Made by a program: the position numbers and the translations under genes
Notes under the pieces: model-generated
The model's database searches: none
Told to the model about the DNA's origin: nothing
The model's input: only the letters and a program-made list of their open reading frames with translations
Assembly: GCA_964423825.1 (NCBI GenBank)
Contig: CAYRHK010000001.1
Coordinates: 1 to 36,367 of the forward strand
Reading direction: 5' to 3'
Source of the DNA: an uncultured Terricaulis sp.
GTDB lineage: Bacteria; Pseudomonadota; Alphaproteobacteria; Caulobacterales; Aquidulcibacteraceae
Length of the DNA: 36,367 nucleotides
Shown: in pieces, positions 8,769 through 34,653 of the stretch
Numbering within the stretch: position 1 is the first letter of the stretch
How the letters are laid out: the number at the start of each line of letters is the position of its first letter

Positions 8769-9512
8769 TCAGCAGGCGTCGCGAGTGTTGAGGACCGCCG
8801 GGACCGTCATAAGTACGATCCAGAACTCGCTCAACCAAGACCATTCCTCAAGGTAGCTGCGGTCGAAGCGCACCCGGGTCTCGTAGCTGGTGCTTGAGCG
8901 ACCGCTCACTTGCCACAAGCCGGTGATGCCGGGCTTGACGAGTAGGTAATACCGGCGGTCGCGGCCATAGCGGCCAAGTTCAGCGCGGGTGACCGGACGA
9001 GGGCCCACGATGCTCATTTCACCCCGAAGCACGTTCCAGAACTGCGGCAGTTCGTCGAGGCTGGTGCGGCGCAAGAAGGCGCCGATTTTGGTGACCCGTG
9101 GGTCGCGACGAAGCTTCTGGCTTTCGCGCCACTCCGAAGCGGCCTCGTGATCCGTGAGCAGGATCTGCGCGAGGCGCTCTTCCGCATCCACAGCCATCGT
9201 GCGGAATTTGTAGCAGGTAAATCGCTCCCCCTGACGACCGATGCGGCGGTGACCGTAGAAAATGGGTCCCTGATCGTGTGCCTTGATCAGCGCCGCAATC
9301 GTCAAGAAGGCCGGCGCGAAGAACACCAACGCGAATGCTGCGACTGCGAAATCGAAGGCCCGCTTCAGCCCGCCGTTGGCGGCGCGCACTTTGGCGATGA
9401 GCCGACGATCAGTGATGCGATGCGCAGAACGTGGCTGCGGCTTGCGCCGTTCCAGGCTCGCGTTTACCGCAGGAATCCCCGCAGTTTTCGCCATGATCAC
9501 GTGGTCAGACAT
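8769..9512 (-). CDS. exoY: Priming undecaprenyl-phosphate hexose-1-phosphate transferase (monotopic PGT, ExoY-like)
   Basis: All core motifs intact: LKRAFD, KFRTM, DPRVT..G.FLR, SLDELPQFWNVLRGEMSIVGPRP, KPGITGLWQVSGR. The ExoY-type EWRESQKLRRDPR insert is present. Start taken at ATG 9512. Donor sugar not determinable. Confidence 0.88.
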   Translation of the reverse strand: MSDHVIMAKTAGIPAVNASLERRKPQPRSAHRITDRRLIAKVRAANGGLKRAFDFAVAAFALVFFAPAFLTIAALIKAHDQGPIFYGHRRIGRQGERFTCYKFRTMAVDAEERLAQILLTDHEAASEWRESQKLRRDPRVTKIGAFLRRTSLDELPQFWNVLRGEMSIVGPRPVTRAELGRYGRDRRYYLLVKPGITGLWQVSGRSSTSYETRVRFDRSYLEEWSWLSEFWIVLMTVPAVLNTRDAC

Positions 9513-9940: not shown

Positions 9941-10144
9941 GCGAAAGCGGGTAACTCAAGGCGCCTCAAAAGCGATGTGCGTTTCAACATGCACCCCGCG
10001 CTGGTTAAGGCGAGGGAGAACTGCCACACTCTAAGCTAAAGTGGAGTGCGCGGAGGGTTTGGCGCGTTGCTCTTTTTCGCTATTAGGTCGATCTTTAGGG
10101 GAATCGGGCGTCTACTTTGGTGGACGACCGTATTGGGGGTGCAT

Positions 10145-11365
10145 GTGCGTTTAGGGGCAATTTCGCTTTTTGCCGCGTCGTTGGCCTTCTTGGTGCCGAC
10201 GGCGGCTGCCCAAACCCCCGACAGCGAAGCGCGAGGCGACGCATCCGTGCGGGAGCGGCAACGCTCTGATTACGATCCACTCGGCATGCGTCTAGGCGCG
10301 TTTATGCTCAACGCCACGTTGGACTTGGGGATCGCTACCAGCGACAACATATTCGCCGAGGAGGTCACCCCTGAGAGTGACGTCATCTTCATTGCGGCGC
10401 CAAGCGCGACTTTGACCTCCAACTGGTCCCGGCACTCCCTGGTTTTTGGCGCTGGGATTCAACGCGCGACGTACCAGGATTTCTCCAATGAGAACGCCAC
10501 CACGGGATACGCCAACGTCTCTGGCCGTCTCGACATCGGCTCGCGCTCGCTCATCCGCGGGTTTGCGGGCTTGGCGAATGCCGTCGAGTCTCGGACAGAT
10601 CCCGATGCCTTGATCTTTGGCGAGCCAGTTGAGGTGGACAGCACCGTGCTCTCGCTCGGCGCGGAGCACCGGTTCACGCGCTTTCGCGTGAGCGGCGATG
10701 TAACCCGCACCGACTGGGACTACAGCGGCGGTCCGTTCAACCAGGATTTTCGTGACAACGAGCAGACCGCTTTCACCGGACGTGTTCAGTTCGACTTCAC
10801 GCCGCGCCTAGGGGGCATTTTCGAGGCTCGCGTAGACGAGCGCGACTACAGCGACCCCACCACGAACGACTCCGACGGCGTGGCTTATCTTGCGGGCGTT
10901 GGGATCAACTTCACCGACGTTCTTCAAGGCGAGGTGCTCGCTGGTGTGTTTGATCGCGATTACGACAATGGCGACACTAACAGCGGCACGGCTGTGTCGG
11001 CCAATTTGGTCTGGTACTTAACCCGCCTTACAAACGTGACGTTTAGCGCCAGCCGCCAGGGCGAAGATGTGAGTGGCAATGTCTCCTCGCCATTCACAGC
11101 CGACCGCTACGGCGTCAGGGTGGATCACGAACTTCGTCGCAACATCATTCTGGCCGCGGGCGTGAGCGGCGGGAAGTTTTCCTACGAAGCGATCGATCGC
11201 GACGATACCTTTTACGGCGGCTTCGTCGGCGCCGACTATTTGGTCAACCGGCGCGTGGTTCTCTATGGAACCTACAACTACAACCAAGTCGAATCCGAAG
11301 GCGTTGATCGCTATCGGGACTTTGAAGCGAACGCCTTCAGGGTCGGCGTTCGCCTGCACCTCTAG
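10145..11365 (+). CDS. Outer-membrane beta-barrel protein of polysaccharide export (BBP2/DUF2320-like)
   Basis: Signal peptide ending TAAA-Q, YDPLGMRLGAFML, SDNIF and NWSRHSL. Alternating amphipathic strands, C-terminal FRVGVRLHL. Start taken at GTG 10145 after a GGGGG RBS. Confidence 0.85.
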   Translation: MRLGAISLFAASLAFLVPTAAAQTPDSEARGDASVRERQRSDYDPLGMRLGAFMLNATLDLGIATSDNIFAEEVTPESDVIFIAAPSATLTSNWSRHSLVFGAGIQRATYQDFSNENATTGYANVSGRLDIGSRSLIRGFAGLANAVESRTDPDALIFGEPVEVDSTVLSLGAEHRFTRFRVSGDVTRTDWDYSGGPFNQDFRDNEQTAFTGRVQFDFTPRLGGIFEARVDERDYSDPTTNDSDGVAYLAGVGINFTDVLQGEVLAGVFDRDYDNGDTNSGTAVSANLVWYLTRLTNVTFSASRQGEDVSGNVSSPFTADRYGVRVDHELRRNIILAAGVSGGKFSYEAIDRDDTFYGGFVGADYLVNRRVVLYGTYNYNQVESEGVDRYRDFEANAFRVGVRLHL

Positions 11366-11458
11366 GTTCTTTTCCTCCGTCAGGTTAAGCTAACCCGTTT
11401 CCACGGGAGCGAACGTGCCGATGGACCGCGTTGTCCCCAGTTCCGGCGTCTGTGCAGC

Positions 11459-12826
11459 GTGAGCAGCTGGACGCTCTGCATCGACTTCGGCACGGCCTAT
11501 TCCAAGGCCGCAGCCGCCCCGCGCGATGCCTGGAGCGGATTTGAGCCCTCCCTGGTGCGTCCTCTAAGGCTGGGTAGCGTGCAGGAAGCTGGCAATGCAT
11601 TCCTGCTTGAAAGCGCCGTTCTCGTGGACGACGCTGCCGTCATGTTCGGGCGCGCAGCGATGTCGCGGGCCGAGGCCCTGACGCACAGTCGGCGCGTGCC
11701 GCTTCGTTCATTCAAGACTTTGTTGAGCGTCAGCGATCTCGATCGCGCACTCAATACCAATGCTCCCGCCTCGGTAGACCCCCATCGTGTATTTCAGATG
11801 CGCGACCTTATCGTCCTGTACCTGGCCTCCCTGCTAACGGCCGTGGATGTAGCCGCGGCTGCTGACGAACTTGTCGCATCTGCTGAGGACCTGGAATGGC
11901 GCTACGCTGCACCAGCCTGGCGCAGCGGCGACAGCGCCGGTCAGCACGATGCTGTGGTGCGTTTGTTCGGCGAAGCGGATGCTTTTCGCCAAATGGTTGG
12001 CGCCGATGCGCTTCTGGCGCCGGGCGGCATCAAGTTTGAGACGGTGCGCGCATTGCTGCCGGAAGCCATGGCTGCGCCCTCGCGCTACAAGATCGGCCTT
12101 ATCTTCGAGGCCACAGCCGCTGCTGCCTACACCTCGATTGGCTTGGCCGAACACGCGTCGCATCTCTTGGTGATCGATATGGGCGCCGGCACTACAGACT
12201 TGGCGGCGCTGGTGCGCGACGGCGCGAGTCTCGCCGAGCTATCCGATGCCCGCGTGACCCTGAAACAGGCGGGTGATTTCGTCGACAACACCATGGCCAA
12301 CGTCGTACTCGATGGCTCTTCGTGGGCAAAAACAGAGGACCAGCGGGCAAGTCTCTGGTCGGCGCTGATGCGCCAGATGCGTCAGATCAAGGAGAGCATT
12401 TTCGTCCACGGCGCCGCCAACATAGAACACGAAGGTCGGCGTATCGCAGTCACCATGCGTGACTTGGAGCGCCATCCCGATTTTCGCGATTTTCTCGCCA
12501 GCCTCACCGCTGCCTACGATCATGCGCTGGGCGTGGTTCAAGATGACGCGCTTCGGCGCCGCTCGCGTGAAGTCGAGGTTGTGGCGGTTGGCGGTGGCGC
12601 TGCGGCGCCGTTCATTCAGGACTTGGTCGTCAGGCGGCGCGGCAACGGCAAAGTGGCGGTGATCAAGCGGCCTGCCACGCCAGAGTGGGCGCATGCGGAG
12701 CGCGCCCCCGACGGCCTAGCGGCGGTATTTCCGCAACTCGCGATCGCGATTGGCGGCGCGCTGGCGCCAGATCCCGTCTTGGCCGTGAGTGGTCCGTCTA
12801 GTCGCCTCGCACGCGGCCGAACCTAA
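11459..12826 (+). CDS. Hsp70/actin-fold (ASKHA) ATPase, nucleotide-binding domain only
   Basis: Phosphate-1 CIDFGTAYS, connect-1 IFEATAAAAY, phosphate-2 VIDMGAGTTD, AGDFVD, adenosine AVGGGA and connect-2 QLAIAIGGA. The protein ends about 20 aa later, so there is no substrate-binding domain. Confidence 0.82.
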   Translation: MSSWTLCIDFGTAYSKAAAAPRDAWSGFEPSLVRPLRLGSVQEAGNAFLLESAVLVDDAAVMFGRAAMSRAEALTHSRRVPLRSFKTLLSVSDLDRALNTNAPASVDPHRVFQMRDLIVLYLASLLTAVDVAAAADELVASAEDLEWRYAAPAWRSGDSAGQHDAVVRLFGEADAFRQMVGADALLAPGGIKFETVRALLPEAMAAPSRYKIGLIFEATAAAAYTSIGLAEHASHLLVIDMGAGTTDLAALVRDGASLAELSDARVTLKQAGDFVDNTMANVVLDGSSWAKTEDQRASLWSALMRQMRQIKESIFVHGAANIEHEGRRIAVTMRDLERHPDFRDFLASLTAAYDHALGVVQDDALRRRSREVEVVAVGGGAAAPFIQDLVVRRRGNGKVAVIKRPATPEWAHAERAPDGLAAVFPQLAIAIGGALAPDPVLAVSGPSSRLARGRT

Positions 12827-13835
12827 AGCCGGCGGGCACCCGGTTGACATAGATCGCGGTCGTGGCTGGCCGAGACGCGGTGTGGAGTTGGCGCATTGTC
12901 CGCCGCACCGCACCAAGCGGCGTGCGGTCCCAGGCGGTCACGACGACCGTGCGGTCGGCCATGCGCCCGATGAGCGCGCCTTCTGCGCTCTCGAGCGCCG
13001 ACGGGCAGTCGAGAACAATGAGTTCGTAATGGGGGCGAAGCTTCTCAAGCACTGGGCGCAGCGTTGGACCCATTGTTCGCCACGGGTTTTGGGCTCGCGC
13101 CGCAGGCAGGAAATGAAGCCCCGTCTCTGGCTCTTCGCTCACGAACCTTTCCCAAGACTCAGGAGTTTCACAAGCTTCGAGCGTTCCCAGCGCCGGTTCG
13201 GCGCCAAGCGCTTTTGTGAGTGATCGGAAGCGCAAATCGCAGTCGATTACGATGACGCTTTTGCCTTGCTGCGCAGCACTCGTGGCGGCGCAAAGCGCCG
13301 TCGTGGTGGCGCCCTCGCCGGGAAGCGAACCTATGAAGGCGATCACGCCGCGCTCTGGCAGAGAACCCTGCAAGTCGCGAAAGGCGGTCGCAAACCCCGA
13401 GGCTGGCCAGAACGCTAGGCACCCGATCGGCGACCGTTTGTCGGGCGGCAACTGGCGCAACACGCCAGGCGTCAACTCTGGCGCCGCCCCGAGCACGGCG
13501 TAGCCACGTTGTTTGCCGAAACTGGACAGAGTCGTCACCGTGTTTCGGCTGATTTCTCGGAGGGCGCCCGACGCAAGCCCGCCAGCGATCCCGACCGGCG
13601 CCCAGAACAGCGCGGCAAATCGCCACGAAGCGCCCCCGAGCACCTCTGCAGCCACGCCTATGGCCGTAATGGCGGCGGCGACGAGGGCGGCAAACAGTGC
13701 TTGGCGGCCAAGCGCGCGCGACAAGCGGCCAAGCGCCAGCGCCCGCAACTGAGCCGGGTTCAGCTCCGGACGGCGCGCGGCTCGACCGCGGGGGCGCGTT
13801 CGCGCCGCGCTCGGCGAAGCAATCTGCTGCGTCAC
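12798..13835 (-). CDS. Wzc/CapB-like BY-kinase paralog with two TMs and degenerate catalytic motifs (probable pseudokinase)
   Basis: Walker A reads SLPGEGATTT (Lys replaced by Ala). Walker A' IDCDLR and Walker B LIVLDCP are kept. No Tyr cluster. Start taken at GTG 13835 after a GGGAGA RBS. Confidence 0.82.
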   Translation of the reverse strand: MTQQIASPSAARTRPRGRAARRPELNPAQLRALALGRLSRALGRQALFAALVAAAITAIGVAAEVLGGASWRFAALFWAPVGIAGGLASGALREISRNTVTTLSSFGKQRGYAVLGAAPELTPGVLRQLPPDKRSPIGCLAFWPASGFATAFRDLQGSLPERGVIAFIGSLPGEGATTTALCAATSAAQQGKSVIVIDCDLRFRSLTKALGAEPALGTLEACETPESWERFVSEEPETGLHFLPAARAQNPWRTMGPTLRPVLEKLRPHYELIVLDCPSALESAEGALIGRMADRTVVVTAWDRTPLGAVRRTMRQLHTASRPATTAIYVNRVPAGFRFGRVRGD

Positions 13836-14085
13836 CCGTGATCTCCCGACCTCTGTGGCGTCATAGCCCGCGTTTGACGCAAGGGCGACCACACTCGTCA
13901 CCCGATTGGCACCGGTCACCCCCGACTTGTATCCTTGGCGAGGAAAAGCGTTCAATTCAAAAACGGGCCCACCGGGATTTCTTGTCGCGGTTGCGGACCC
14001 TGGCGCGTGCCTTCCTGGGGGCACACATATCTTGCGTGAAATCCATTGGGCGAGATCGCCAGTAGAGACGTGCAGAGGTCGGGCA

Positions 14086-14718
14086 ATGCTTTATGAGATG
14101 CCCCGCAAAGTCCCCGAACGGCCGGACGGCGAAGCTCCGCCGGAGAACACGTTCGAGGCCTCGCTACGACGCGACCTTTCCGGCGACCCGCTCATCTCAT
14201 GCAATCCCGTTGTGGGTGGGTGGCTGAAACGCGGGTTCGATCTCCTTGTCCTCCTTGTCGTCGCGCCAGTTCTGGGGCCGCTCTTGCTTCTGAAGGCGAG
14301 CGCCTATTGGCGGCGCAAGCAACCAGCATTCGCGCGCTGTGAGAGCGTAGGCTACGGAGGCCGCCGGTTTGAACGTTTGCTTTGGGCGAGCGATCCCGGC
14401 GAGCCTGCCAACGACACTGCATCGCAGGCGCGGGGCTCGCTCAGCGAGCACCTTCCCCAGCTCCTAAATGTCCTTCGTGGCGAGATGTCGCTGGTTGGCC
14501 CGCTACCGCTTACGCAAGATCAAATCTCTGCTCTAAAGACCGGCTTGCGGCACTACCTGAGCGCGCGCCCCGGCGTGTTTGGCGTGAGGGCGGTTTTGAA
14601 CGCGCCGGAGGAAGATCCGCTCCACTACAAGGCTTATGCGTTGTCGTGGTCGCTCTTGGCCGACTCGGTGCTGTTGTGGCAGGAGCTAAACGCCTTGCGG
14701 CGGACGGACGCGGACTAA
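14086..14718 (+). CDS. Degenerate sugar-transferase (monotopic PGT) paralog, probable pseudoenzyme
   Basis: Keeps LKRGFD, the hydrophobic helix, LPQLLNVLRGEMSLVGP and RPG. DE is replaced by EH, KFRTM is absent and GPRP reads GPLP. ORF uninterrupted. Start taken at ATG 14086. Confidence 0.78.
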   Translation: MLYEMPRKVPERPDGEAPPENTFEASLRRDLSGDPLISCNPVVGGWLKRGFDLLVLLVVAPVLGPLLLLKASAYWRRKQPAFARCESVGYGGRRFERLLWASDPGEPANDTASQARGSLSEHLPQLLNVLRGEMSLVGPLPLTQDQISALKTGLRHYLSARPGVFGVRAVLNAPEEDPLHYKAYALSWSLLADSVLLWQELNALRRTDAD

Positions 14719-14767
14719 CGCACTGGTCGCAGGCTCGTCGTTTCAGCGAAGGACGCGGTCTTTCATC

Positions 14768-15901
14768 TTGGTCAAGTTGGCGTTCTTCGGGCACGACGCA
14801 AATGACGCCGCCGTGCAGCGGCGGATCGCAGCATTCGCGCAGGCCGACGCTGAGGTTCACGGCTTCACTATGCGCCGGGGTGAACTCCATGCCGATCCGG
14901 GCTGGGACAATGTCGACCTTGGCGCCACGCGCGACGCCGATTTTGCTCAGCGCATAAGGGCCCTGTGGGCTTCCCGCGCTGTGCTCCGGCGAAACCGGGG
15001 GGCTTTGCGCGCGTGCGAGGTCTTTTGGGCGCGGAACCTCGACATGCTTGCGCTTGCGCACTGGGCCCGGGGCATGAGCGGCGCGAGCGCTTGTTTGGTC
15101 TATGAGTGCCTCGACATTCACCGCTTCATGACCCGCGAGGACCCTCTGGGAGCGGGCATGCGCCAATTTGAACGCAGCTTGCTTCGCGACACAGCGCTTG
15201 TGGTGGTGAGCTCGCCGGCTTTCGTTCGCGAATATTTTGACAAGAGGCTGACGGGGCTTGCGCGCACAAAGTTGGTGGAGAATCGCCTCGCTCCCGGCTT
15301 TGAGTATGGACCCCGGCCCACCCAACACGCGCCGACCGCGGGCGCCGTCAGGCTGGGGTGGTTTGGAAATCTACGTTGCCGTCGCTCGTTGTCGCTGCTG
15401 CTTGACCTTGCTGACCGTTTTCAAGACCGGATCGAGCTGCACTTGCGGGGCGCGCCCACGAAAACCGATCTCGGCGATTTCGAAGCACGCGTCGCTGGAC
15501 GGACCAATGTCCATTTCGCTGGGCGATATCGTTGGCCGGATGACCTCGCATCCATCTATGCCGGCGTCGACTTGGTCTGGGCTGGTGACTTCCACGATCC
15601 CGGCGCAAATTCGAAATGGTTGCTGCCAAACCGCCTTTACGAGGGCGGATATTATGGTGCTACTCCGTTGGCCCCGTCCGACAGTGAAACTGGGCGATGG
15701 ATTGCGGCGCGCGGATTCGGGTTCACGCTTGATGAACCGTTAGAACAAAACCTGCCCGAGTTTTTCGCCAGCATTCAACCCGCGGAGCTCGCCGCCGCGC
15801 GTGCGCGCTTGCTGGCCGCTGACATCGACACATTCGTCCAGCCTGTAGAGGAGTTGCGCCAGGTACTGCGGGTGGCGCTCTCGGGGGAGGGGCTGCGCTG
15901 A
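14768..15901 (+). CDS. exoL: ExoL-like glucosyltransferase
   Basis: HDANDAAVQRRI, GFTMRR, ARNLDML, YECLDIHR, SSPAFV..YF, GWFGNLRCRRS and NSKWLLPNRLYEGG match recalled ExoL features. Confidence 0.8.
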   Translation: MVKLAFFGHDANDAAVQRRIAAFAQADAEVHGFTMRRGELHADPGWDNVDLGATRDADFAQRIRALWASRAVLRRNRGALRACEVFWARNLDMLALAHWARGMSGASACLVYECLDIHRFMTREDPLGAGMRQFERSLLRDTALVVVSSPAFVREYFDKRLTGLARTKLVENRLAPGFEYGPRPTQHAPTAGAVRLGWFGNLRCRRSLSLLLDLADRFQDRIELHLRGAPTKTDLGDFEARVAGRTNVHFAGRYRWPDDLASIYAGVDLVWAGDFHDPGANSKWLLPNRLYEGGYYGATPLAPSDSETGRWIAARGFGFTLDEPLEQNLPEFFASIQPAELAAARARLLAADIDTFVQPVEELRQVLRVALSGEGLR

Positions 15902-17121
15902 TGGGCAAGCCCGTTCTGGTAATGTTGCTGAGCCGCCAGCCCTTTGTGGAAAAGAGCGGCCGCGGCTTCACTTTGCGCCAGCGGATCGAGCAGGCGCGAA
16001 CGCAGTTCGACGTAAGGTTGATTGTCCTGGGGCCACCAAGCGGTGACCCGACCGACGAAGGGTTGACGTTCGTGCCGATGGCGCCGCCGCTCGCACTTGC
16101 GCTCAATGCGGTGCGCTTGGCGCCATTGCCGCTCCAGACCTGGCTCTATTACAGCGCATCAGCGCGCTCGCGCATCGCGGATATTGTCGCCAAAACTGGC
16201 GCCTGGGCGGTCTACGTCGATCTGTTGCGACTAGCCCCGCTGATCGAGGGAACGCCCGCGCACATCGCGCGAATTCTCGACTATGACGACATCTTTTCAG
16301 TCCGTTACCGCAACGCTGCGTCGAAGAACTACGATGTGATGGGCTTCTTGGCCGGTCGCGTCGGCGTTTTGGCGCCGCTCGCTCGCACATTCGCGCCGCT
16401 GCTATTGCGTATCGAAGCGGCGCGTTGCGAAACCTATGAAAAGACCATGCTCAGCCGCGCCGACCTCGTGGTGCTGGTGTCTCCTACGGAAGCGCGATTG
16501 ATCGAGAGGCCCGGCGCTCATGTTCTGGTCGCGCCGCCCGTCGTGCAGCCGATCGCCGGTGCTTCGACCCCCGGGCGGCGGTTGGTATTCCTCGGCAACA
16601 ATCGTTTTGCCGAGAACATCAGCATGTTGCGCGATCTCGCTCGTGCGCTTTCGGAACTGGGATCGGATCTCTCGGATGACGTCGTGATCGACGTGGTCGG
16701 CGATCACGCGCCCGAGCTGCCGAACCAGCTGGGCTCGCCGCGGCTAAACTTCTTGGGTCGCGTCGCGGATCTGCGCGACCTTGCCGGCGCCGGAGTCTTT
16801 CTGGCGCCGGTGATGAGCGGCAGCGGCGTCAAACTCAAGGTGTTGGACGGTATGGCGCTGGGCTGCCCGGTGGTAGCTACGCCGAAGGCGCTAGAAGGCA
16901 TAGGCGCGCGCGCCAACCGCGATCTCATCATAGCAAATGACGCCAAAGGGGTGATCAAGGCAGCGCTCGCGCTCCGCGATCGTCGCACGCTCAAGGCCAT
17001 GCTCGCACGCCGCGGCCACGCCTACATCGAGCACGCACATGCGCCGAGCATCGGCGACGCGTTCTGCGCGGCGATGGAGTCGGCCATCGCCCGCGCCGCC
17101 AAGCGTCACGAAACGCTGTAG
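15901..17121 (+). CDS. GT4 (GT-B fold) glycosyltransferase
   Basis: APVMSGSGVKLKVLDGMALGCPVVATPKALEGI signature. TGA/ATG overlap with exoL. Confidence 0.88.
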   Translation: MGKPVLVMLLSRQPFVEKSGRGFTLRQRIEQARTQFDVRLIVLGPPSGDPTDEGLTFVPMAPPLALALNAVRLAPLPLQTWLYYSASARSRIADIVAKTGAWAVYVDLLRLAPLIEGTPAHIARILDYDDIFSVRYRNAASKNYDVMGFLAGRVGVLAPLARTFAPLLLRIEAARCETYEKTMLSRADLVVLVSPTEARLIERPGAHVLVAPPVVQPIAGASTPGRRLVFLGNNRFAENISMLRDLARALSELGSDLSDDVVIDVVGDHAPELPNQLGSPRLNFLGRVADLRDLAGAGVFLAPVMSGSGVKLKVLDGMALGCPVVATPKALEGIGARANRDLIIANDAKGVIKAALALRDRRTLKAMLARRGHAYIEHAHAPSIGDAFCAAMESAIARAAKRHETL

Positions 17122-19247
17122 TAGGACTTCGATTGATAGAAGTAGAGCGAGTCCGAATAGGACTGCCAATGAGGCAATACACAATTGAGCGCCACGCCCA
17201 GCACCTTGCCGCCGGCGCCTTCAGTTTGCGCAATGGCCGATTTCACCGCCCCGATCGCCGAACGGCCAGCCCGGGCCACGACCACGGTCGTGTCGGCATG
17301 CTTCACTAGTACGCGCGTCTCAGCGACCGCCAGGATCGGCGCGCAATCGAGGATCACCAGGTCGTAGGCGCCCCGGAGGTCGTTCACGAGGCGCTCCATG
17401 GCGTCGGACCCGAAAACGTCGCGTGGTGTGAAGCCCGAGGCGGCGACCGGCAGAATGTGCGCGTCTGACGCGGGATCCTGCACGATCGCCGCACGCCATG
17501 GCGCCTCGCCGGCGAGCACCTGCAGAATGCCAACGTCGGTCTCGATGTCGACGACGTCATTGATTGATTGCTTGCGTAGATCGCAATCGACGACCACCAC
17601 CCGCTGACCCGACATCGCCGCCACGCGCGCCAAGCACATCGAGATGGTTGTCTTGCCTTCGTCGGGCAAAGCTGACGTGATCGCTACGACTTTCACCGAG
17701 AAATCGAGCTTGGAATAGACGATTACTGTGCGCAGGACGCGCAGCGCTTCGGCGAAAGCCGACATTGGTCGCCCAATTAGATAGCCCGAAGGGTGGCGAT
17801 CGGATGGCGGCAGTTGACGCATCATGGTCCGCGAGATCGTGGGAATCGAGGCAATAGCGGGGTGGCCGACACGCGCTTCGAGGTCTTCGGCGTTCTTCAC
17901 GGATTGGTCGAACATCTCAAGCGCGATGCCGACCGCGACCCCCAACAACAACCCAGCAGCGATCGCCAGCGCCAACGCCACGCGCAACTGCGGCGAAGAG
18001 GGGCGCGTTGGCACCGAGGCGTAGTTCATCAACCGTGCGTCGGAGGTATTCAACTGATCCTGGTCCGCGATCTCTTGGTAGCGTTGCAGATAGCTCTCGT
18101 AGACCTCGCGGCTCGCCGTTGCTTCCCGTTCCAGTTCGCGCAGCCGCACGCTTTCGGCGGAATTGTTCGAAAGATCGCCCGTTGCGTCCGACAAGGAGTT
18201 CTGCAGCGTCTGCAATCGCGCGCGCGCCACGGCGACTTCATTGGCGAGGTTCGCCGAGATGCGCTGAATTTCGCGCTGGATTTGCGCTTCGAGTTCGACG
18301 CGTTCGGCGCGCACCGCCTGCACCGCGGGATGAGTTTCAAGATAACGATTCTCAAGATCCGATTGCCGCCGTGCGATTTCCGCATCGCGATCGCGCAAAC
18401 TGCGGATCGTCTCCGAATTCATGGCGTTGCCGATGGTCTCTAGCGAGGCGTTCGAACCGCGAAGGTCCTGCAGTTGGCGCAGTCGCGCCTCGCGCTCTGC
18501 GAGATCTGCTTGAGCCTGCAAAACCTGGGTCTGAATGTTCGTGATCTGCTGTTCGACCAGAGACGAGCCCTGGGCCGCCATCAGGCCGGATTCGATCCGG
18601 AACATCTCGGCAGCGCGCTCTTTCTCCTGCACATCTTCGCGCAGCTCAGCCAAGCGGCGGGCGAGCCACGAATTGGCGCGTTGCGAGGTGTCCACTCGCG
18701 CGTTGATCTGGCTTTCGATGTAAACGTCGGCGTAGGTGTTGGCGATGAGCTGCGCCCGTTCCGGATCGGGCGAACGCGCCGTGATTTCGATCACGTAGGT
18801 GAGGCCGCGACGTCGCACTTCGATTGAGCTGAGCAGCCCGTAAATCACCGCCTGCCGGGCGCCTTCGTCGCCGTTGACCTCCATGCCCAAAGCCTCCGCC
18901 AGCTCATCCATCAGCGCGGGCGAGCGCAGCAGTTCGATTTCGGAATCGATCGCCGAGGAGTCTCGCGGCATTGCTCCCACCACCGCTTCGTCGGCATCGA
19001 CGACGCGCTCTTGCCTTGAGTTGATCGCGAGCAACGAGGTGGCGCTATAGGTCGGGGTGCGCAGCATCAGAAACGTGAACACCGCTGCGGCGACGGCCAG
19101 CCCGACCGCACCCATGACCAGCGCACGCCGCCGCAACATCGCAATTGCCGCGTTAAGCCCGAAAATTTCGGCGAGCGTCTGCGGCTGCGACGAGCCCGGC
19201 GGATACCCCGGCGGGACGGCTGATCCATCAATCGCGCTTGTCGTCAT
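17106..19247 (-). CDS. wzc: Polysaccharide co-polymerase / tyrosine autokinase (Wzc/ExoP)
   Basis: TM, coiled-coil periplasmic domain, TM. Motifs EALRVLR, Walker A SALPDEGKTT, VDCDLR and LVILDCAP. Tyr-rich tail SYSDSLYFYQSKSYY. Alternative GTG start at 19259. Confidence 0.93.
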   Translation of the reverse strand: MTTSAIDGSAVPPGYPPGSSQPQTLAEIFGLNAAIAMLRRRALVMGAVGLAVAAAVFTFLMLRTPTYSATSLLAINSRQERVVDADEAVVGAMPRDSSAIDSEIELLRSPALMDELAEALGMEVNGDEGARQAVIYGLLSSIEVRRRGLTYVIEITARSPDPERAQLIANTYADVYIESQINARVDTSQRANSWLARRLAELREDVQEKERAAEMFRIESGLMAAQGSSLVEQQITNIQTQVLQAQADLAEREARLRQLQDLRGSNASLETIGNAMNSETIRSLRDRDAEIARRQSDLENRYLETHPAVQAVRAERVELEAQIQREIQRISANLANEVAVARARLQTLQNSLSDATGDLSNNSAESVRLRELEREATASREVYESYLQRYQEIADQDQLNTSDARLMNYASVPTRPSSPQLRVALALAIAAGLLLGVAVGIALEMFDQSVKNAEDLEARVGHPAIASIPTISRTMMRQLPPSDRHPSGYLIGRPMSAFAEALRVLRTVIVYSKLDFSVKVVAITSALPDEGKTTISMCLARVAAMSGQRVVVVDCDLRKQSINDVVDIETDVGILQVLAGEAPWRAAIVQDPASDAHILPVAASGFTPRDVFGSDAMERLVNDLRGAYDLVILDCAPILAVAETRVLVKHADTTVVVARAGRSAIGAVKSAIAQTEGAGGKVLGVALNCVLPHWQSYSDSLYFYQSKSYYSVS

Positions 19248-19381: not shown

Positions 19382-19939
19382 TTAAAAGAACCGTTCTCCA
19401 ATCCGGATTGTGTCGCCGGGGGATACGGGAGTGGTCGTGTTGAGACGATAGGGCCGCTCTTCCGCCTCGTTCGCGTGCCGAATGAAGACGCGCCGTCTGT
19501 TCGCCCGATAGGTAAACCCGCCCGCCGTCGCCACCGCGTTGAGGACGGTGAGGTCAGCGGAGTAGGGATAAGTTCCTGGTCGTTGCACTTCGCCCAAGAT
19601 AAAGAACGGCCGGTAATTCGCCACCTCGACGCTGACATTCGGGTTCCGCAGGTATTCCTGAAGCGCTGTCCGAAGCGCTTCGGTAAACTCAGCTACGGTC
19701 AATCCCACGGCGGCAATCTCGCCGACCAGGGGGTATGCAATGGTGCCTTGGGAGCCAACCAGAAACTCGCCCGTGAGGTCGGGCTCGCCAAACACGGTCA
19801 CGCGCAGCTGGTCCCCCGATCCCAGCCGGTATTCGCTCGGCTGTACGGGTTGGTCCTGCGCCGCCGCGACCCCGGAAAAGCCGGCGGAAATTGCGCCGAG
19901 CCCGATCAGGACGCCGCGCCTTGTGTGCCAAACTGACAT
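19382..19939 (-). CDS. wza: Short OPX (Wza/ExoF-like) polysaccharide export protein, 185 aa
   Basis: Poly_export motif YRLGSGDQLRVTVFGE..GTIAYPLVG plus one SLBB domain (GEVQRPG..AVATAGGFT). Ends PGDTIRIGERFF. ATG 19939 follows a GAGGTGAGG RBS. Confidence 0.9.
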   Translation of the reverse strand: MSVWHTRRGVLIGLGAISAGFSGVAAAQDQPVQPSEYRLGSGDQLRVTVFGEPDLTGEFLVGSQGTIAYPLVGEIAAVGLTVAEFTEALRTALQEYLRNPNVSVEVANYRPFFILGEVQRPGTYPYSADLTVLNAVATAGGFTYRANRRRVFIRHANEAEERPYRLNTTTPVSPGDTIRIGERFF

Positions 19940-20000
19940 GAGCCTCACCTCAGGCGTATATCGCGCTTTATTTACCAAGCCGCAAGCGCGCCCCAGCGCC

Positions 20001-33288: not shown

Positions 33289-34653
33289 TCAGCTCGGCGA
33301 CTGTCGAGTGCCGCTCGGGTAGAGACGACGCATCAAGGGGCCGCAAATTCTGTCGAAGGAGGCCCTCTCCTGTTCAGTCCACGCGGCGGCGGAGTGCTTA
33401 TCATAGTGGGCTTCATTGGTTCCTCTCACGAGGATATCCACGGGCTCTAGGCCTAGAAACTTCTGTAACGCGATCGCAGCCGAGCTGTTGAAGTCCTCAA
33501 GACGCAAGGTGTAGCGCAGCGGTTCAGGGAGGCGGCCTAGGTCTCGCTCAATGACTTCGTTGACGTGGGTCCAATACCAGCAATTCTTCTCAAAAGCCGT
33601 CATTGACGCCCAGTCCGCCGCCGTCACAGATCCACACAAGTCGCCGCGAATGCGGTTCTCGTGATAGTACCAATCGATGTTTTTCCACACTGGATGGTCG
33701 GGCCCCGCATACCAGCTTCGACCTACAGTCGACGCGACAACCGCCCTCGCCTCGCGCATCATCCAGACGAATTTCGCGGTAGGAATGATCTCATGAAGGA
33801 TCGGAGTCAGGTTGAAGAGTTTTAGGTCTGAGAAAACATAGACAACGTCTTTGCTGTATACCGATGTCTGCAGCAACAATTGCGTCAGCTTGTCCTTCAT
33901 CTCTGCGGCGCTGAGCGCGCCGTGAGCAAAGTCGGTTGACCACTTTATCAGCTGCATATGGGCTTCATGCTTAGCGTCAACCTTGGGGTGTTGGTTGAGC
34001 GCAGCTGCGATGGTCGTACTGCCCGCCCTTCCGGTTGTCAGCACAAAGCAAATAGAGGGGGAGCGTTCGTCGCCGCGCTTGAATTGTAAGGCTGAACTCG
34101 CAGCGGTTTGCCGCGCACGCAGTTCCTCATAAGCTCCCAGCGGTCGCTCGCCAGTGACGCGCGCCGGTTGTGCGCCCATCACCGCCCTCGCAGGAACATC
34201 GGCGCAAACGACGGCGCTTGGTCCCACAATTGCGCCTTCGCCGATGGTCACGCCGGGCAGAACGACAGCGTTACGCCCGATTGTAACGTTGCGCTCGATC
34301 ACCACTTGGCGCCATGTCTGCCTTTGAGGCAACGATGCGTCGCTCCCCTGGTGGGGTTCGGTTGTGTAGATCGCGACCCCATCGGAGATGTGCACGTTGT
34401 CTTGGATCTGCAGGCCGCCTTGAGCCTGAATGAAGACCCCCCGACCCATTTGGATATTGTTGCCCAGCGCTATCGCCCGAGGATCGACTATTTCTGCGCT
34501 AGGGTCGATAATCACATTGTCGCCAATGGACTGAAACGCCGCTCGAACTCGCGCTTGTTGGTCGGCGAGTCGGCTGCGTCGAGCGCGATCCAGCAATTCC
34601 GCAAGACTCGCGAGCGCCCGGACCAATACGTTCTTCAAGCCACCGCTCGCCAC
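33289..34653 (-). CDS. Fusion of a hexapeptide (LbH) acyltransferase and a PAPS-dependent sulfotransferase-like domain
   Basis: N-half: IGDNVII, LGNNIQMG, IQDNVHIS and IERNVTIGRNAVVLPGVTIGEGAIVG. C-half: VLTTGRAGSTT (5'-PSB-like), LNQHP, HE, KFVWMMREARAVVAS (3'-PB-like) and LRLEDF. Confidence 0.8.
   Translation of the reverse strand: MASGGLKNVLVRALASLAELLDRARRSRLADQQARVRAAFQSIGDNVIIDPSAEIVDPRAIALGNNIQMGRGVFIQAQGGLQIQDNVHISDGVAIYTTEPHQGSDASLPQRQTWRQVVIERNVTIGRNAVVLPGVTIGEGAIVGPSAVVCADVPARAVMGAQPARVTGERPLGAYEELRARQTAASSALQFKRGDERSPSICFVLTTGRAGSTTIAAALNQHPKVDAKHEAHMQLIKWSTDFAHGALSAAEMKDKLTQLLLQTSVYSKDVVYVFSDLKLFNLTPILHEIIPTAKFVWMMREARAVVASTVGRSWYAGPDHPVWKNIDWYYHENRIRGDLCGSVTAADWASMTAFEKNCWYWTHVNEVIERDLGRLPEPLRYTLRLEDFNSSAAIALQKFLGLEPVDILVRGTNEAHYDKHSAAAWTEQERASFDRICGPLMRRLYPSGTRQSPS

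Follow-up and report, generated by a model that had tools for sequence, protein, structure and literature searches.

The window analysed here is the 36,367-nucleotide contig CAYRHK010000001.1 (assembly GCA_964423825.1) of an uncultured Terricaulis sp., contig 1 of a genome that is 76% complete and that also occurs in sludge metagenomes. It carries a polysaccharide locus with a phosphoglycosyl transferase (PGT), a BBP2 barrel, Wzc, Wza, Wzx, and many glycosyltransferases, within which lie the three contiguous genes considered here: an Hsp70-like ATPase, a Wzc-like protein without catalytic residues (pseudo-Wzc), and a PGT-like protein without the catalytic dyad (pseudo-PGT). An earlier note, made from the sequence alone, reported three intact open reading frames (ORFs), a 29-bp overlap, and pseudo-Wzc and pseudo-PGT placed head to head, all of which is confirmed from the coordinates (Table 1). 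The minus-strand pseudo-Wzc gene ends at 12798, within the ATPase gene, and its likely start is the GTG at 13835, because GGGAG lies upstream and the orthologues align from there. The pseudo-PGT gene is divergent from it across a 250-bp gap.

The three-gene arrangement is not an assembly artefact, since the stretch from 10000 to 15000 is spanned unbroken by a contig from another study's run, with 48 substitutions and no gaps. The 17 strain-level codon changes listed there comprise 10 silent and 7 missense changes and no stop; 29 further differences in the stretch are unlisted. Four RNA runs gave only scattered short contigs (e.g. 12072-12289, 13576-13808, 14175-14326), for which DNA carry-over is possible. 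The closest proteins carry the source names Vitreimonas, Terricaulis, or Hyphomonadaceae, and genera so named are reported to be grouped in a clade named Aquidulcibacteraceae (PMC12700997).

Table 1. Features of the polysaccharide locus, in window coordinates
Feature	Position	Strand	Basis
Small PGT, motifs intact	8769..9512	-	Orthologue in only 14/36 genus genomes
Outer-membrane beta-barrel (BBP2_2)	10046..11365	+	Pfam E 1.5e-76; synteny; conserved export core upstream of the ATPase
93-bp gap where relatives have the GrpE-like gene	11366..11458	+	Contigs from two further studies run across the junction
455-aa ATPase consisting only of an Hsp70 nucleotide-binding domain, homologous to PADLOC PDC-M61B	11459..12826	+	Structure, motifs, profile match
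Pseudo-Wzc, 345 aa, two membrane helices and BY-kinase-like domain	12798..13835	-	ORF extendable to 14024
Pseudo-PGT, small monotopic PGT fold without Asp-Glu dyad, 210 aa	14086..14718	+	Pfam Bac_transf PF02397 E 1e-17
Full-length Wzc, intact GKT, ExxRxxR, and Tyr tail; presumed target	17106..19247	-	Motif comparison
Wza/OPX export protein	19382..19942	-	Pfam Poly_export

The pseudo-Wzc and the ATPase

The pseudo-Wzc is 32% identical to the Wzc of the locus over 238 aa. It has G175-A-T in place of the G531-K-T of Wzc and T150xxRxxQ where Wzc has E500xxRxxR, and it is without the tyrosine cluster that gives Wzc 4 Tyr in its last 16 residues; the DxD motif and the Walker B Asp are retained. These differences are shared throughout the family. 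The Walker A Lys, reported to be required for ATPase and kinase activity (PMC9800525), is present in none of 54 pseudo-Wzc sequences (A 47, S 4, G 2, T 1), nor in any of the 33 within the genus, and there are only 0-2 Tyr in the last 20 residues in 54/54. The Walker A' DxD is kept in all 54 and the Walker B Asp in 52. In the O-motif ExxRxxR, described as one of the two ring interfaces (PMC9800525), the first Arg is kept in 54/54, the Glu in 2/54, and the second Arg in 0/54. The Wzc proteins of the genus have the intact GK[ST] Walker A Lys in 27/27, with 4-6 Tyr within the last 25 residues.

By hydropathy, the membrane helices of the pseudo-Wzc are at 47-65 and 74-92, and those of Wzc at 43-61 and 423-441. 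With helices only 8 residues apart, the pseudo-Wzc must be missing some 360 periplasmic residues. The earlier note saw it as a Wzc without catalytic residues; the loss of the Lys and the Tyr tail stands, but the whole periplasmic domain is gone too. In the two g341 copies no membrane helices were detected by hydropathy.

The same note took the pseudo-Wzc for a paralogue of the locus's own Wzc. It did not arise by recent duplication of that gene, a shared clade being rejected by the approximately unbiased (AU) test (p-AU 0.0003), and the sampled pseudo-Wzc sequences form a single clade apart from active Wzc (18 rows against 12, support 99). In loci L154 and L199 the order on one strand is wzc, pseudo-wzc, GrpE-like gene, ATPase, which suggests that the pseudo-Wzc arose when wzc was duplicated in tandem and one copy lost its periplasmic part. 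The pseudo-Wzc profile gave no match at E 1e-60 in 240 genomes from other families of the order.

The recognition of an actin-fold ATPase with intact motifs is borne out by the structure. The AlphaFold model (pLDDT 90) has as its best Foldseek matches the nucleotide-binding domains (NBDs) of Hsp70 proteins (E 1e-13), and the nucleotide motifs are invariant in 54/54 sequences. The substrate-binding domain and lid are missing, as the entire 455-aa model aligns to NBDs of about 380 aa. Membership of the DnaK or MreB/MamK families was rejected, with scores far below the cut-offs and no match to the DnaK model.

Conservation, selection, and the pseudo-PGT

Comparisons were made with 36 genomes of the genus, 147 of the family, and 400 class-wide. 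An ATPase orthologue is found in 34 of the 36 genus genomes, the pseudo-Wzc in the same 34, and the pseudo-PGT in 29; the two genus genomes without all three genes are 83% and 84% complete. The order conserved in the genus is BBP2, ATPase, pseudo-wzc, pseudo-PGT, optional glycosyltransferases, wzc, wza, so that for the ATPase and pseudo-Wzc the co-occurrence and synteny raised in the earlier note are seen. The two are adjacent on one contig in 32/34, and in G024 they are split at contig ends. Beyond the genus, the ATPase family is present in 103/147 family genomes and 10/20 genera, and in 3/400 genomes class-wide. In the rest of the family, 28 ATPase loci were compared: at 13 a short Wzc-like gene without the Lys is no more than 900 bp away, 5 more are beside wzc/wza/wzy/PGT genes, 9 have neither within the DNA fetched, and 1 falls outside the count.

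The ATPase/pseudo-Wzc pair is present in 7 genera, and at 56 loci the two genes are convergent in 43, co-directional in 9 (one of which, L202, has a different pseudokinase 8 kb from the ATPase), and divergent in 4. Genomes G722 and G732 have two such pairs each. The adjacency therefore survives rearrangement and duplication. G011 (frameshifted, L059) was left out of the paired alignments, L039, L044, and L202 out of alignments A5/A6, and G747 (L183) was also left out; L171-L173 covered only 1.5 kb each side. The frameshifts, in the ATPase and GrpE-like genes of L059 (G011) and in pseudo-wzc and wzc of L039 (G020), are probably assembly errors, because several genes are affected.

The ratio of nonsynonymous to synonymous substitution (dN/dS) in the three closest pairs is 0.01-0.06 for the pseudo-Wzc, 0.04-0.09 for the pseudo-PGT, 0.03-0.04 for the ATPase, and 0.02-0.06 for Wzc. 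In pairs with dS of 0.05-1 the medians are 0.18 (29 pairs), 0.19 (22 pairs), 0.30 (52 pairs), and 0.22 (86 pairs), respectively. Purifying selection, like that on the real wzc, is therefore evident in the close pairs, and the catalytic substitutions are, as the earlier note had envisaged, shared among orthologues, with the Lys lost in 54/54 pseudo-Wzc and the dyad in 28/28 pseudo-PGT. These shared substitutions and low dN/dS values refute, for the family, the explanation that the pseudo-Wzc and pseudo-PGT are decaying, functionless duplicates, and at strain level the listed codon changes include no stop. Decay would fit the window copies better, these being on longer branches, with the pseudo-PGT truncated and the GrpE-like gene lost, and pairs with the window copies are saturated (dS above 1.2, dN/dS 0.27-0.50), leaving the window lineage itself poorly tested for selection. 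Taken together, this explanation is barely credible.

The pseudo-PGT is 39% identical to the locus PGT over 82 aa, with E121-H for the D153-E of that PGT, GPLP for GPRP, and the KFRTM sequence gone; it is also C-terminally shorter than most orthologues (about 255 aa). The DX12P re-entrant helix is retained (D52-P65), and Foldseek matches are to PglC/WbaP (E 1e-4 to 1e-5), on a weak model (pLDDT 64) used for the fold alone. In PglC the catalytic dyad is reported as D93E94 and the substrate residues as K59 and R111 (PMC12802240). The dyad is found in 0/28 pseudo-PGTs, where it is mostly E-R, the substrate Lys in 3/28, and the Arg in 7/28, whereas dyad, Lys, and Arg are all present in 12/12 active-type PGTs. 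Databases label this family as ordinary 'sugar transferase/ExoY'.

Of the 30 genomes that have this type of wzc, 29 carry the pseudo-PGT, and of the 6 that do not, none does. Only 13 of the 29 carriers are among the 14 genus genomes with an orthologue of the window PGT; the other 16 lack one, and most of these show another small PGT beside a second wzc. The pseudo-PGT thus tracks wzc/wza and not the locus PGT. The view in the earlier note that it mimics the locus's own PGT is unsupported, and a role as dedicated partner of that PGT was rejected on the same counts. Nor do the three genes make one module, as had been supposed: that they co-occur stands, but they form two separable units. The ATPase and pseudo-Wzc, with the GrpE-like gene in relatives, are an old family-wide unit, and the pseudo-PGT is younger.

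In another genus, at L202 (G481:C25:6000-25900), the ATPase and GrpE-like gene adjoin wza/wzc and a second dyad-less pseudo-PGT (17113-17793), which is placed outside the pseudo-PGT clade of the genus, on a long branch that makes the placement unsure. This locus also has a 615-aa Wzc-like frame without the Walker A Lys or a Tyr tail; the same inactive components may have arisen independently here.

The GrpE-like gene and the resemblance to PDC-M61

In relatives, an ORF of 130-170 aa adjoins the ATPase. It is found at 56/59 loci, 18 of which seeded the profile, and in 14/14 further loci, one from a genome already counted; it is in none of the loci L060-L105, which hold other ATPase paralogues of the genus. 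The product resembles the C-terminal half of GrpE (hhalign probability 90, E 1.5e-6, 66 columns), with a helix and a beta-domain carrying the FDP..H motif, as in GrpE. Its top PDB match is GrpE 3a6m (E 0.046), and GrpE is in rows 3-5 of the Atlas structure matches. In the window, the junction where this gene would lie is bridged in contigs of two other studies, which rules out an assembly artefact and indicates that the gene has been lost from the locus in this species; it has also been lost in three g316 loci. In L214 (6148-6936) the frame with the GrpE-like domain is 263 aa long, extended at the N-terminus, and located upstream of a divergent ATPase copy, and in the Atlas cyanobacterial HTH-GrpE fusions are structural neighbours of the small gene.

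The likeness to DnaK-GrpE thus consists of the NBD fold, its motifs, and a neighbour with a GrpE-like beta-domain. It differs in that the ATPase is without the substrate-binding domain and the canonical grpE is a separate gene (G000:C41).

Residues 4-434 of the ATPase match positions 123-556 of the 588 in the PADLOC model PDC-M61B (E 2.2e-50). This model is matched by 7/7 distant ATPase relatives tested, in a wider family of 329 clusters at E 1e-30. In two distant genomes, in one case near IS66 genes, the ATPase is behind a PDC-M61A gene whose C-terminus matches the GrpE-like profile, just as the small gene in relatives is upstream of the ATPase and co-directional with it. In contrast to PDC-M61, the ATPase here has no counterpart to about 120 N-terminal positions of the M61B model, most of M61A is missing, and the genes, which are near-core, lie within polysaccharide export loci. 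Full-length M61A is absent at the window locus, and the small gene alone has no PADLOC match.

These matches bear on the possibility that the unit is a defence or stress device, in which a PDC-M61-like ATPase would sense infection and the pseudo-Wzc and pseudo-PGT would be anchors or decoys that switch the surface sugar, itself a phage receptor or shield. Besides the M61B match and the GrpE-like C-termini of M61A, a negative correlation between PDC-M61 and temperate phage number is reported in P. aeruginosa (10.1101/2024.04.30.591980). PDC systems are, however, described as untested defence candidates, and M61 is unnamed in the main text of their source preprint (10.1101/2024.01.29.577857); most of M61A is missing, and a near-core distribution, fixed position, and low dN/dS are atypical of defence genes. 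A defence role is quite unlikely. In the accessible text, a preprint on ParA immunity (10.64898/2026.10.19.760177) mentions neither Wzc nor GrpE, and PMC8265645 has nothing on NBD-only proteins.

A candidate control unit for the Wzc ring

Read from sequence comparison, the conserved ATPase/pseudo-Wzc pair is likely an ATP-driven unit that controls the Wzc export ring in one family of stalked bacteria, with the pseudo-PGT likely a later accessory of the same Wzc/Wza core. In the form that is tentatively favoured here, and which stops a little short of probable, this unit would tune assembly of the Wzc ring as a switch based on an Hsp70 NBD of defence origin and tethered by a pseudokinase with a single ring-binding face. 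Without the catalytic Lys, the Tyr tail, and two of the three O-motif residues, the pseudo-Wzc would be neither enzyme nor substrate and would enter the Wzc ring through a single face, thereby closing it off as a cap or opening it. The ATPase would dock on the pseudo-Wzc, its nucleotide state deciding between holding and release, with the GrpE-like protein as its putative exchange factor, and this ATPase/GrpE-like pair may derive from a PDC-M61-type operon. The pseudo-PGT, still on the membrane, could act as a scaffold for, or a damper on, whichever active PGT supplies this Wzc. An Hsp70-like regulator of exopolysaccharide (EPS) has a precedent in StkA (PMC4319316). The fuller proposal is that this family domesticated the two-gene PDC-M61 conflict system and, by way of a pseudo-Wzc without a periplasmic domain, turned it into a switch that uses ATP to open and close the Wzc ring, with the pseudo-PGT coupling initiation to that ring; it is doubtful.

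Each part has a precedent, in EcpK/HfsB, StkA, and ExoX/PsiA, and the defining features of each family fail here. EcpK of Myxococcus and HfsB of Caulobacter likewise have the Wzc kinase fold without the catalytic residues or Tyr tail and are encoded with Wzx/Wzy-type export; they are described as stand-alone proteins that partner a co-polymerase without a kinase domain (PMC12004946). The pseudo-Wzc, by contrast, has two membrane helices, is the neighbour of a complete Wzc of active type, and forms a gene pair with an Hsp70-like ATPase, and unlike EcpK it retains Walker A' and B. Membership of the HfsB/EcpK group was rejected on the two helices and on the full-length neighbouring Wzc with its GKT and tail. 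The fused pseudokinase forms that PMC12004946 names have a periplasmic part, which the pseudo-Wzc does not.

StkA of Myxococcus xanthus is likewise Hsp70-like and affects EPS, with deletion reported to give about 50% more; it differs in being 540 aa, in acting between pili and Dif signalling, and in that no pseudo-Wzc partner is described in the accessible account, so that it is likened by function (PMC4319316). ExoX and PsiA, small inner-membrane proteins proposed as post-translational inhibitors of priming PGTs, offer a model for the pseudo-PGT; that source does not, as far as available, describe them as PGT paralogues (PMC3233446), whereas the pseudo-PGT is of PglC fold and goes with wzc/wza, not with one PGT. 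In the literature searched, mostly without subscription papers, there was no such combination of genes and no inactive PGT paralogue family. The earlier note had likewise recognised the combination in no described locus; BY pseudokinases (EcpK, HfsB) and PGT inhibitors (ExoX) are known, with a different anatomy.

The comparison with EcpK and HfsB, reported to be essential scaffolds (PMC12004946), raises the alternative that the unit is a constitutive assembly factor, the pseudo-Wzc being a scaffold and the ATPase a dedicated helper that builds the export machine. It would fit the finding of the pseudo-Wzc in 23/23 genus genomes of one profile search, and the block BBP2-ATPase-pseudo-wzc-pseudo-PGT-wzc-wza that is kept without glycosyltransferase genes in many genomes. 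A substitute is not needed, however, by a partner Wzc that has its own intact kinase and tail (27/27); the helper would have no substrate-binding domain; and many family genomes have wzc but no ATPase. This explanation is unlikely.

Several observations weigh against control of the Wzc ring by the ATPase/pseudo-Wzc unit. G015, which is 91% complete, has the ATPase, the GrpE-like gene, and the pseudo-Wzc, and no full-length wzc was found in it; G006, G009, and G032 have the same three genes without this type of wzc, each with another wzc. In all four genomes the ATPase and pseudo-Wzc are together in the absence of wzc, wza, and pseudo-PGT of this type, and in G036 the ATPase and pseudo-Wzc are separated. 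Members of the ATPase family also occur outside polysaccharide loci: a second near-core paralogue (24 tree rows) is behind an OmpR/EnvZ-like two-component pair, two copies are at ftsA/ftsZ sites, and G000 holds two further copies. The GrpE-like gene, which was not found in G000, is lacking in the window species, and its sequence likeness to GrpE is weak, Pfam GrpE matching 1/21 of the small proteins, with an E of 0.032, below the cut-off. The monophyly of the pseudo-Wzc is possibly long-branch attraction, and since the genomes are kin the counts are not independent.

The ATPase and pseudo-Wzc might instead serve a role apart from Wzc, such as envelope or division positioning, with their place in the locus marking only the birthplace of the pseudokinase. 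The pair in G015, the paralogues at envZ-like and ftsA/ftsZ loci, and the weak MinD/ParA-type matches of the pseudo-Wzc would all be consistent with this. Against it, the G015 genome is incomplete and has the most degenerate of the pseudo-Wzc sequences, and ATPase copies of other clades, without a pseudo-Wzc, also adjoin wzy/wza/wzc genes, in 3 genus genomes and at 4 loci in other genera. Such a role is improbable.

Were the ATPase/pseudo-Wzc unit to act on the Wzc ring, control of Wzy-type export would not rely on Wzc phosphorylation alone, a substrate-domain-less Hsp70 would have a dedicated client, and the priming transferases would have a conserved pseudoenzyme family. The questions addressed are the assembly and disassembly of the Wzc ring and the coupling of initiation to export, post-translational control of these pathways having been called incompletely understood (PMC12802240). 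The locus is a small, deletable gene set that could answer them. It supplies a candidate client and exchange factor for an Hsp70 without a substrate domain, gives a first point of functional access to the untested PDC-M61 family, and adds a conserved family of pseudo-PGTs. As family members are named in Terricaulis and Vitreimonas, genera reported to have cultured species (PMC12700997), tests are feasible.

The OmpR/EnvZ-linked ATPase paralogue (L061, L068, L075, L081, and about 20 similar loci; G000:C427) has no GrpE-like or pseudo-Wzc neighbours. A paralogue is directly behind ftsA at L065:9206-10567 and L067:816-2177, and in L065 it is between ftsA and ftsZ. Others, in L069, L094, L103, L208, L211, and L215, adjoin a BTLCP gene of transglutaminase-like type at the margin of a second wzy/wza/wzc/PGT locus.

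Between 8769 and 36367 of the window Wzx was found and Wzy was not found among the 26 ORFs scanned; the contig end at 36367 falls inside a gene, so the locus may continue. There is no full CtrA-type TTAA-N7-TTAA site in the window. A hexapeptide-repeat acyltransferase domain is fused to a sulfotransferase-like domain at 33289-34653 on the minus strand. In the lineage without glycosyltransferases between pseudo-PGT and wzc (L131, L156, L158, L165-L169), a calcineurin-like phosphoesterase gene, a candidate Wzc phosphatase, is present after wza, where the window has a GT2 gene.

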